Below, piece by piece: positions 19,233-19,421 of a stretch of DNA of 23,984 nt (positions are counted from its first letter, which is position 1; each line of letters begins with the position of its first letter). The DNA is from Escherichia coli. Its GTDB lineage: Bacteria; Pseudomonadota; Gammaproteobacteria; Enterobacterales; Enterobacteriaceae. The stretch lies in the NCBI RefSeq assembly GCF_003334305.1, contig NZ_QOWS01000038.1, one strand, 5' to 3'. The notes under the pieces were generated by a model, which was not told the DNA's origin, made no database searches, and saw nothing but the letters and a program-made list of their open reading frames with translations. A program made the position numbers and the translations under genes.

Positions 19233-19250
19233 GTAAACATTAGTGTTTAC
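19233..19250. promoter_or_regulatory. palindrome upstream of hicA, candidate HicB operator
   Basis: GTAAACA ttag TGTTTAC: perfect 7-bp arms with a 4-bp spacer, about 33 bp upstream of the hicA GTG. Confidence 0.45.
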
Positions 19251-19421
19251 CTCCGTGTGTAATTTGCTCGAAAATAGCACTAAATCGCCGCAACGGCAGA
19301 ATGCAATGCAAAATCAGGAAGGAAGATTCCAGAATTTCTTTGCGCTAATTTGCAAAACTGAATAATAACCTCAAGAAACGATCGGCATCATAGCGGCAAA
19401 AGGTAAGAAAAAGGTGGCAGG

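Follow-up and report, generated by a model that had tools for sequence, protein, structure and literature searches.

The locus described here raises the question of what the palindromic DNA in front of a destroyed toxin gene still does, and whether its good preservation tells anything about the age or the consequences of the toxin's loss. The window, i.e. the whole stretch of 23,984 nucleotides that was analysed, is a part of the E. coli chromosome and contains ydcR (17099–18505, minus strand), hicB (18584–19000, minus), a hicA pseudogene (19046–19200, minus, GTG start at 19200), the divergently oriented yncJ (DUF2554; 19422–19652, plus) and rlhA/ydcP (from 19744, minus). Two dyads lie in the 221-bp spacer between hicA and yncJ (19201–19421), referred to as dyad 1 (19233–19250) and dyad 2 (19339–19356). 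The explanation that best accounts for both together, and which we consider probable, assigns dyad 1 to the HicB operator hicO superimposed on the hicAB promoter P2 and treats dyad 2 as an undesigned symmetry in ancestral yncJ promoter DNA, plausibly a CpxR box.

The hicAB locus and its defective toxin gene

A 1.2-kb region around the two genes is 100% identical to that of strain A7, whose RefSeq annotation of the same sequence specifies an intact hicB and lists hicA as a frameshifted "mRNA interferase" pseudogene. Compared to K-12, hicA has lost 22 bp between TGCG microhomologies (junction at ca. 19083/19084), which causes a frameshift and a premature TGA at 19066–19068. The resulting product, MKQ...RHPC-VKQS*, comprises 44 instead of 58 residues and lacks residues 41–58; the allele of the window carries the exchange F28S in addition. 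The toxin gene, described as broken in the earlier note, is thus indeed a pseudogene. The neighbouring hicB is intact and encodes a protein of 138 residues, all of which are matched by the HicB chain of the PDB entries 6HPB/6HPC, the crystallised K-12 protein; the RefSeq protein accession in the window is likewise that of K-12 HicB. The C-terminal HTH domain of this cognate antitoxin is present and intact, and the HTH segment is conserved among the homologue loci compared. The hicA–yncJ spacer is identical to that of K-12 base for base, and published results on the K-12 promoters therefore carry over directly. Downstream of yncJ, a REP-like element follows immediately at 19653–19692, with a weak match to naRNA4 (RF02564; 28.5 bits compared with a gathering score of 59.5); the Rfam scan returned sub-threshold matches only.

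The distribution of the hicA lesion was assessed among 5426 complete E. coli genomes. The junction of the 22-bp deletion is found in 199 of them, which come from many hosts and countries, and the undeleted 45-mer of the K-12 type in 3010. The junction of a larger deletion is present in 1088 genomes; it joins window position ca. 18820 to 19244 (locus L003, 603–646) and takes out the right arm of dyad 1, P2, hicA and the 5' part of hicB (ca. 60 codons). As the breakpoint is located inside dyad 1, only the left arm GGAGGTAAAC is left. Together, these two lesions account for the loss of hicA in no fewer than 24% of complete E. coli genomes. The 22-bp deletion is a common lineage allele, and the 1088 genomes with the larger deletion demonstrate that the whole hicAB module is dispensable.

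From the intact regulatory DNA next to the broken toxin the earlier note had derived the suggestion that the lesion is recent or that hicB has retained a role. The genome comparison withdraws the basis of this suggestion: the spacer is at least 99% identical to that of the window in 3779 of the 5426 genomes, so that no decay is expected either way. A 44-mer containing dyad 1 was detected in 3857 genomes (in 3331 of them as an exact match) and a 44-mer containing dyad 2 in 4333. Intact flanking DNA is the species norm and is silent on the age of the lesion, and the notion of a recent lesion was dropped, since the deletion occurs on several different haplotypes among 199 genomes. Of the carriers of the 22-bp deletion, four were sampled; over the 1.2 kb they are separated from the window by 4–11 SNPs, none of which falls inside either dyad, and hicB of one carrier shows five synonymous and zero non-synonymous changes.

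Loss of the toxin in other lineages occurred independently. Three further loci combine a hicA lesion of their own with a full-length hicB and a perfect operator, namely Escherichia sp. E1V33 (L005, 2280–2452) with a 1-bp deletion in codon 40, E. coli SCPM-O-B-8794 (L007, 2237–2454) with a stop at W9 and an 11-bp deletion removing the P2 −10 element, and Citrobacter sp. Cu233 (L011, 2279–2448) with a 1-bp deletion near codon 28. A metagenomic contig resembling E. albertii (L025, 1089–1720) contains only two hicB fragments, corresponding to window positions 18402–18600 and 18940–18994; hicA, dyad 1 and P2 are deleted, and upstream of yncJ the block around dyad 2 is retained. Toxin-first decay with hicB kept is recurrent and the only viable order of loss, and it is followed by total loss in some lineages. 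A new role of HicB is not required by this order of events; purifying selection on hicB in the carriers is possible.

The palindrome upstream of hicA

Dyad 1, GTAAACAttagTGTTTAC, consists of two perfect 7-bp arms separated by a 4-nt spacer (GTAAACA-ttag-TGTTTAC) and lies at 19233–19250, i.e. 33–50 bp upstream of the hicA GTG, so that the palindrome reported directly in front of hicA is present exactly as described. Among dinucleotide-shuffled versions of the 221-bp spacer, 11% contain at least one perfect inverted repeat with 7-bp arms and a loop of up to 10 nt, and the whole window contains 28 of them. By its symmetry alone, dyad 1 is mildly unusual and suggestive (P ca. 0.11), short of significance.

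The inverted repeat overlaps the predicted core promoter elements just upstream of hicA. On the minus strand, its right arm includes the −35-like hexamer TAAACA (19244–19249), which is separated by 19 nt from the TATACT of a predicted extended −10 element, TGaTATACT (19219–19227). The start site of P2 would accordingly be expected ca. 7 nt past the −10 element, at about 19211–19213, with dyad 1 extending from ca. −38 to −21 and the hicA Shine-Dalgarno sequence GGGAGG (19205–19210) positioned 1–3 nt from the predicted 5' end. In MG1655 coordinates (1528486 minus the position in the window), dyad 1 corresponds to 1509236–1509253 and the predicted P2 start to about 1509273–1509275. For this spacer, Shimada 2014 recorded an in vitro SELEX peak of the RpoD holoenzyme and predicted TAAACA-19-TATACT as the promoter directed toward hicA. 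A consensus-based promoter and terminator scan detected neither a sigma-70 promoter nor a terminator at 19000–19500; P2 is missed by such a scan because of its 19-nt spacer. Start-site entries for these coordinates or genes are absent from the available text portions of the genome-wide studies of Ettwiller 2016, Conway 2014 and Kim 2012, and a literal search of paper texts for the dyad and operator strings produced zero matches. Further upstream on the minus strand, a second extended −10 element, TGcTATTTT (19271–19279), marks a candidate hicAB promoter that may be P1; its TAT column is kept in the Citrobacter and Raoultella cassettes.

The regulation of K-12 hicAB has been characterised by Turnbull & Gerdes 2017 (Mol Microbiol 104:781), whose results are taken here from the accounts in PMC11594946, PMC10865869 and PMC6957337. 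According to these accounts, hicAB is served by an upstream promoter P1, in which a CRP-S motif is present and which depends on Sxy, and by P2 close to the hicA start. Repression of P2 is exerted by HicB alone and runs via the inverted repeat hicO; mRNA from this promoter gives rise to HicB and not to HicA, and excess HicA destabilises operator-bound HicB. As far as the experimental details are recounted in these secondary sources, HicB binding was assayed on a 147-bp upstream fragment, which would end about halfway into dyad 2; this assay has no bearing on P1.

The operator assignment gains further weight from a comparison of 18 loci with HicB relatives of 60–100% identity, in 14 of which hicA was located. 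Twelve of these 14 loci contain the motif GTAAnCA-N4-TGnTTAC without mismatch at −49 to −51 relative to the hicA start, and one locus with an 11-bp deletion has it at −39; it is absent from one Brenneria locus. The loci with the motif belong to seven genera (Escherichia, Citrobacter, Raoultella, Superficieibacter, Pantoea, Serratia and Brenneria), and only two spurious matches with up to two mismatches were encountered elsewhere in 73.7 kb. The DNA upstream of the motif is unrelated from group to group, and the operator element therefore travels with hicAB. Loci from Pantoea, Serratia, Brenneria and Superficieibacter (L009, L014, L015, L016 and L017) contain two tandem copies between ca. −72 and −33 from the hicA start, one, GTAAACAnnnnTGTTGAC, placed over a TTGAC −35 element and the other, GTAAGCAnnnnTGnTTAC, over a TACTAT −10 element. 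Twelve of the 14 half-site positions are invariant, and changes at position five of either arm are not compensated in the other, a pattern more in keeping with recognition by a protein than with an RNA stem. Judged by the K-12 identity, the published work and this hicAB-linked conservation across genera, dyad 1 is most probably the known HicB operator hicO, as the earlier note had supposed.

Two other readings of dyad 1 have to be weighed against this assignment. The arms could form an RNA hairpin in the leader of the P1 transcript that affects translation of hicA or mRNA stability, with no protein operator involved. The RNA from 19266 to 19195 indeed folds with dyad 1 as a 10-bp stem (MFE −15.2 kcal/mol, z = −2.3 relative to shuffles). 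Among 13 distinct homologues, however, five of the seven pairs never vary, the variable pair is unpaired in three sequences, and the level of covariation is reached by 211 of 500 shuffles; moreover, the motif in Pantoea, Serratia and Brenneria sits on the −35 and −10 elements and hence 5' of any transcript. We consider the hairpin highly improbable and have dropped it owing to the lack of covariation. Alternatively, dyad 1 might represent back-to-back −35 hexamers (TAAACA on each strand) of divergent promoters or a Cpx-related GTAAA element for yncJ, and HicB would then also control yncJ. This reading draws on the predictions of Shimada 2014, in which TAAACA-18-TGTAAT toward yncJ accompanies the hicA-directed pair under one SELEX peak, and on the presence of GTAAA, the pentamer of the CpxR half-site, on both strands of dyad 1. 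It is nevertheless improbable: the motif goes with hicAB in loci without yncJ and is missing from yncJ promoters in genera without hicAB at this position, and a yncJ transcript from dyad 1 would need a leader of ca. 150 nt. The GTAAA pentamers stand in inverted orientation with 13 bp between their centres instead of forming direct repeats spaced by 10 bp, and dyad 1 was dropped as a CpxR site for reasons of this orientation and spacing.

With dyad 1 read as hicO, a HicB dimer would bind to the two GTAAnCA half-sites, whose centres are ca. 11 bp apart. The operator would cover the −35 region of P2 together with the spacer between the promoter elements, and bound HicB might thus block RNA polymerase by occlusion. 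Transcripts from P2 would begin ca. 11–13 nt before the hicA GTG, right at the ribosome-binding site, and would consequently direct the synthesis of HicB only; the short distance between the 5' end and GGGAGG plausibly explains this restriction. In the strain examined here, with hicA destroyed and both hicB and hicO intact, HicB would persist as a self-repressed orphan antitoxin beyond the reach of derepression by HicA.

The dyad upstream of yncJ and the edge of the hicAB cassette

Dyad 2, TTTGCGctaattTGCAAA, was found one base away from the position of ca. 19338–19355 given in the earlier note, at 19339–19356 (TTTGCG-ctaatt-TGCAAA). Its existence stands; its quality as a palindrome does not, since only five of the six pairs match, with a G/A mismatch at the innermost pair, and inverted repeats of this quality (6-bp arms, at most one mismatch, loop up to 10 nt) occur ca. 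11 times per shuffled spacer. The palindrome is no more than chance.

The surrounding block is perfectly conserved within diverged Escherichia, and its flanks vary. For comparison, we used yncJ loci without adjacent hicAB from Salmonella, Citrobacter, Enterobacter cloacae, C. koseri and E. fergusonii. In all compared genera and species without hicAB there, the block CTTTnCGCTAATTTG...GAATAATAAC is present with an unchanged distance to the yncJ ATG, which supports the suggestion that dyad 2 is part of the yncJ promoter. The right arm in these taxa reads TGAAGT, TGAATT or TGAAAA as opposed to TGCAAA, and the inverted symmetry is therefore not a conserved feature. Adjacent to dyad 2, the block CTGAATAATAAC (19358–19369, plus strand) is kept upstream of yncJ across Enterobacteriaceae and includes a −10-like AATAAT (19361–19366, plus), suggesting a role in the yncJ promoter. 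The segment GGCATCATAGC (19386–19391 plus flanks) is also kept upstream of yncJ across genera and offers a possible alternative −10 element, CATCAT, which would put the CpxR-like repeat described below near −52.

The feature shared by the taxa is a direct rather than an inverted repeat. In the window it reads TTTGC-N5-TTTGC at 19339–19353, corresponding to GCAAA-N5-GCAAA on the other (hicA) strand, and the conserved core of the block across taxa is TTTnC-N5-TTTGn, also written GnAAA-N5-GnAAA. The consensus of the CpxR box is reportedly GTAAA-N5-GTAAA and is said to go back to work by De Wulf in 2002. Relative to this consensus, the repeat scores 8/10 in E. coli and 7–9/10 in the other taxa, and in nine of ten taxa the best match is located at −83/−84 relative to the yncJ ATG (outright in six, tied in three). 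A best match of at least 8/10 also arises in 27% of shuffles and is, taken alone, not significant. The yncJ gene is Cpx-induced in E. coli and Salmonella, and it is absent from the list of direct CpxR targets determined by ChIP-exo. The direct repeat in dyad 2 is a plausible candidate for the CpxR box of the Cpx-induced yncJ.

The position of dyad 2 relative to hicAB likewise places it in yncJ promoter DNA. In E. fergusonii (L026, 1340–1503) the site is empty and carries a single repeat copy; the sequence of this site, ATGACAACTTT directly joined to ACTCTAATTT, matches both ends of the E. coli insertion. On the basis of these boundaries, hicAB forms a cassette of ca. 760 bp (ca. 18580–19335) inserted into the ancestral spacer between yncJ and ydcR. 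The comparison also defines an imperfect direct repeat of 13 bp at its borders, with the left copy CTTTTCGTTAACT at 18567–18579 and the right copy CTTTGCGCTAATT at 19338–19350 (both given on the plus strand), which are identical in ten of 13 positions; the right copy overlaps dyad 2 and provides its left arm and spacer. Accordingly, dyad 2 begins 3 bp outside the cassette, in DNA older than the presence of hicAB here. According to this comparative evidence, dyad 2 is best described as a chance symmetry in ancestral yncJ promoter DNA, which possibly was recruited to serve as a weak CRP-S site.

Two further elements were noticed at or near this edge. A partly palindromic block, AAGGAAGATTCCAGAATTTCTT, occupies the upstream end of the cassette at 19314–19340, with a core ATTCCAGAAT at 19326–19335; its ATTCTGGAAT...TTCC core is common to the Citrobacter hicAB loci and only partly shared by the Raoultella locus. 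Tandem TGCAA repeats, AATGCAATGCAAAA, are situated between the dyads at 19300–19312 and are variable among Escherichia; we take them to resemble TTGCA motifs of the CytR type.

The earlier note had considered dyad 2 as a CRP or CRP-S site. For CRP, every 16-mer was scored against TG(T/C)GA-N6-TC(A/G)CA by consensus matching in place of a weight matrix. The best core score in the spacer is 7/10, a background value reached by 1% of the window positions; it is attained by four matches (two registers of dyad 2, 19377 and 19404) with two expected. Furthermore, the arms of dyad 2 are 2 bp too close to each other, and thus out of register, for two CRP halves (TGCGA-N6-TCGCA), so that only one half-site fits in any register. 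Dyad 2 was dropped as a canonical CRP site because of its background score, the kind of outcome that the earlier note had itself named as refuting.

The CRP-S version of this idea is matched in one half of the dyad only. CRP-S sites follow the 22-mer consensus TTTTGCGATCnnGATCGCAAAA. The 22-mer at 19336–19357 is the best match of the spacer to this consensus (12/20, within the top 0.2% of the window positions), a score owed to one good half-site, TGCAA, with T/A-rich flanks; a second half-site in register is missing. Regarding the diagnostic bases C6/G17, only one half carries such a base in any register, the C6 of TGCAA. The change from TGAA to TGCAA is confined to the Escherichia clade in which the hicAB insertion is, or once was, present. 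Given this half-site and the clade-specific change, the weak CRP-S site published for P1 may coincide with dyad 2. Promoter DNA of yncJ would then have been co-opted, with CRP and Sxy activating hicAB from a site that is, or overlaps, dyad 2. In line with this proposal, the literature on P1, as recounted in the sources named above, ascribes to it a CRP-S motif activated by Sxy, and the centre of dyad 2 would be ca. 82–84 bp upstream of the start predicted from the TGcTATTTT −10 element, in a class-I-like phase. Apart from the background core score and the single half-site, the greater age of the dyad 2 block at this locus argues against it, as does the lack of a position-conserved CRP-like site (at least 8/10) upstream of hicAB in other loci; matches of this quality occur only in Raoultella, Serratia H1w and Brenneria roseae, at differing positions. 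We regard such a co-option as possible, if only tentatively, and as compatible with the ancestral yncJ origin of the block.

A more far-reaching scenario, which appears doubtful to us, would unite these observations. According to it, hicAB entered the Escherichia lineage as the ca. 760-bp cassette by insertion into the conserved repeat of the yncJ promoter that resembles a CpxR box, ca. 13 bp of which were duplicated, with dyad 2 as the promoter-proximal copy. The subsequent change from TGAA to TGCAA would have created a weak CRP-S half-site used by P1, and one element would serve two divergent genes under the control of Cpx and Sxy/CRP, respectively. In strains with a dead hicA, orphan HicB bound to back-to-back −35 hexamers could also influence yncJ.

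Relation to known regulatory systems

Taken as a whole, chance symmetry in ancestral yncJ promoter DNA (dyad 2) and the HicB operator (dyad 1) amount mostly to the known biology of how hicAB regulates itself, met here in a strain whose toxin is dead. The additions are modest. They comprise a cross-genus consensus for the operator of HTH-type HicB proteins, GTAAnCA-N4-TGnTTAC, in one or two copies per promoter, the frequency of hicA loss in E. coli through the two lesions, its independent loss in other lineages with persisting hicB and operator, and the recognition of the second "palindrome" as ancestral yncJ promoter DNA at the cassette edge. They aid annotation and warn against assigning functions to AT-rich dyads; no new question is opened.

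Orphan antitoxins and toxin-first decay are known for chromosomal type II toxin-antitoxin loci. The hicAB locus corresponds to them in that the toxin is dead and the antitoxin-repressor persists with its operator, independently in several lineages; nothing is new in kind, but examples and allele frequencies are added for hicAB. With the CpxR box, the dyad 2 region shares GCAAA-N5-GCAAA on the hicA strand and the constant position in nine of ten yncJ upstream regions, but it departs from it by a match of only 8/10 in E. coli and the absence of yncJ among the direct ChIP-exo targets. The CRP-S sites with the core TGCGA-N6-TCGCA (Cameron & Redfield 2006, PMC1635313) are resembled by dyad 2 in the T-rich and A-rich flanks and in one C6 half-site. 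It differs from them in the second half, which is 2 bp out of register, in the core score at background level and in its origin from ancestral yncJ DNA.

The nearest parallels are found among HicB repressors. As summarised in PMC11594946, Yersinia pestis HicB3 binds to the operators BS1 and BS2 flanking PhicA3 (Bibi-Triki 2014), an example of antitoxin autorepression by way of inverted repeats over core promoter elements; the layout described there is mirrored by the two tandem copies over −35 and −10 in the Pantoea, Serratia, Brenneria and Superficieibacter loci. The Y. pestis operators are described in this summary as 15-bp repeats bound by a tetramer, whereas E. coli has a single 18-bp site. 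The P2/hicO region of K-12 hicAB finally agrees with the window in the DNA of the whole spacer, in the HicB protein itself and in the inverted repeat just upstream of hicA, which overlaps a promoter very near the start codon. The difference resides in hicA, which is a 22-bp-deletion pseudogene in the window, and the circuit therefore lacks the branch in which HicA relieves repression.
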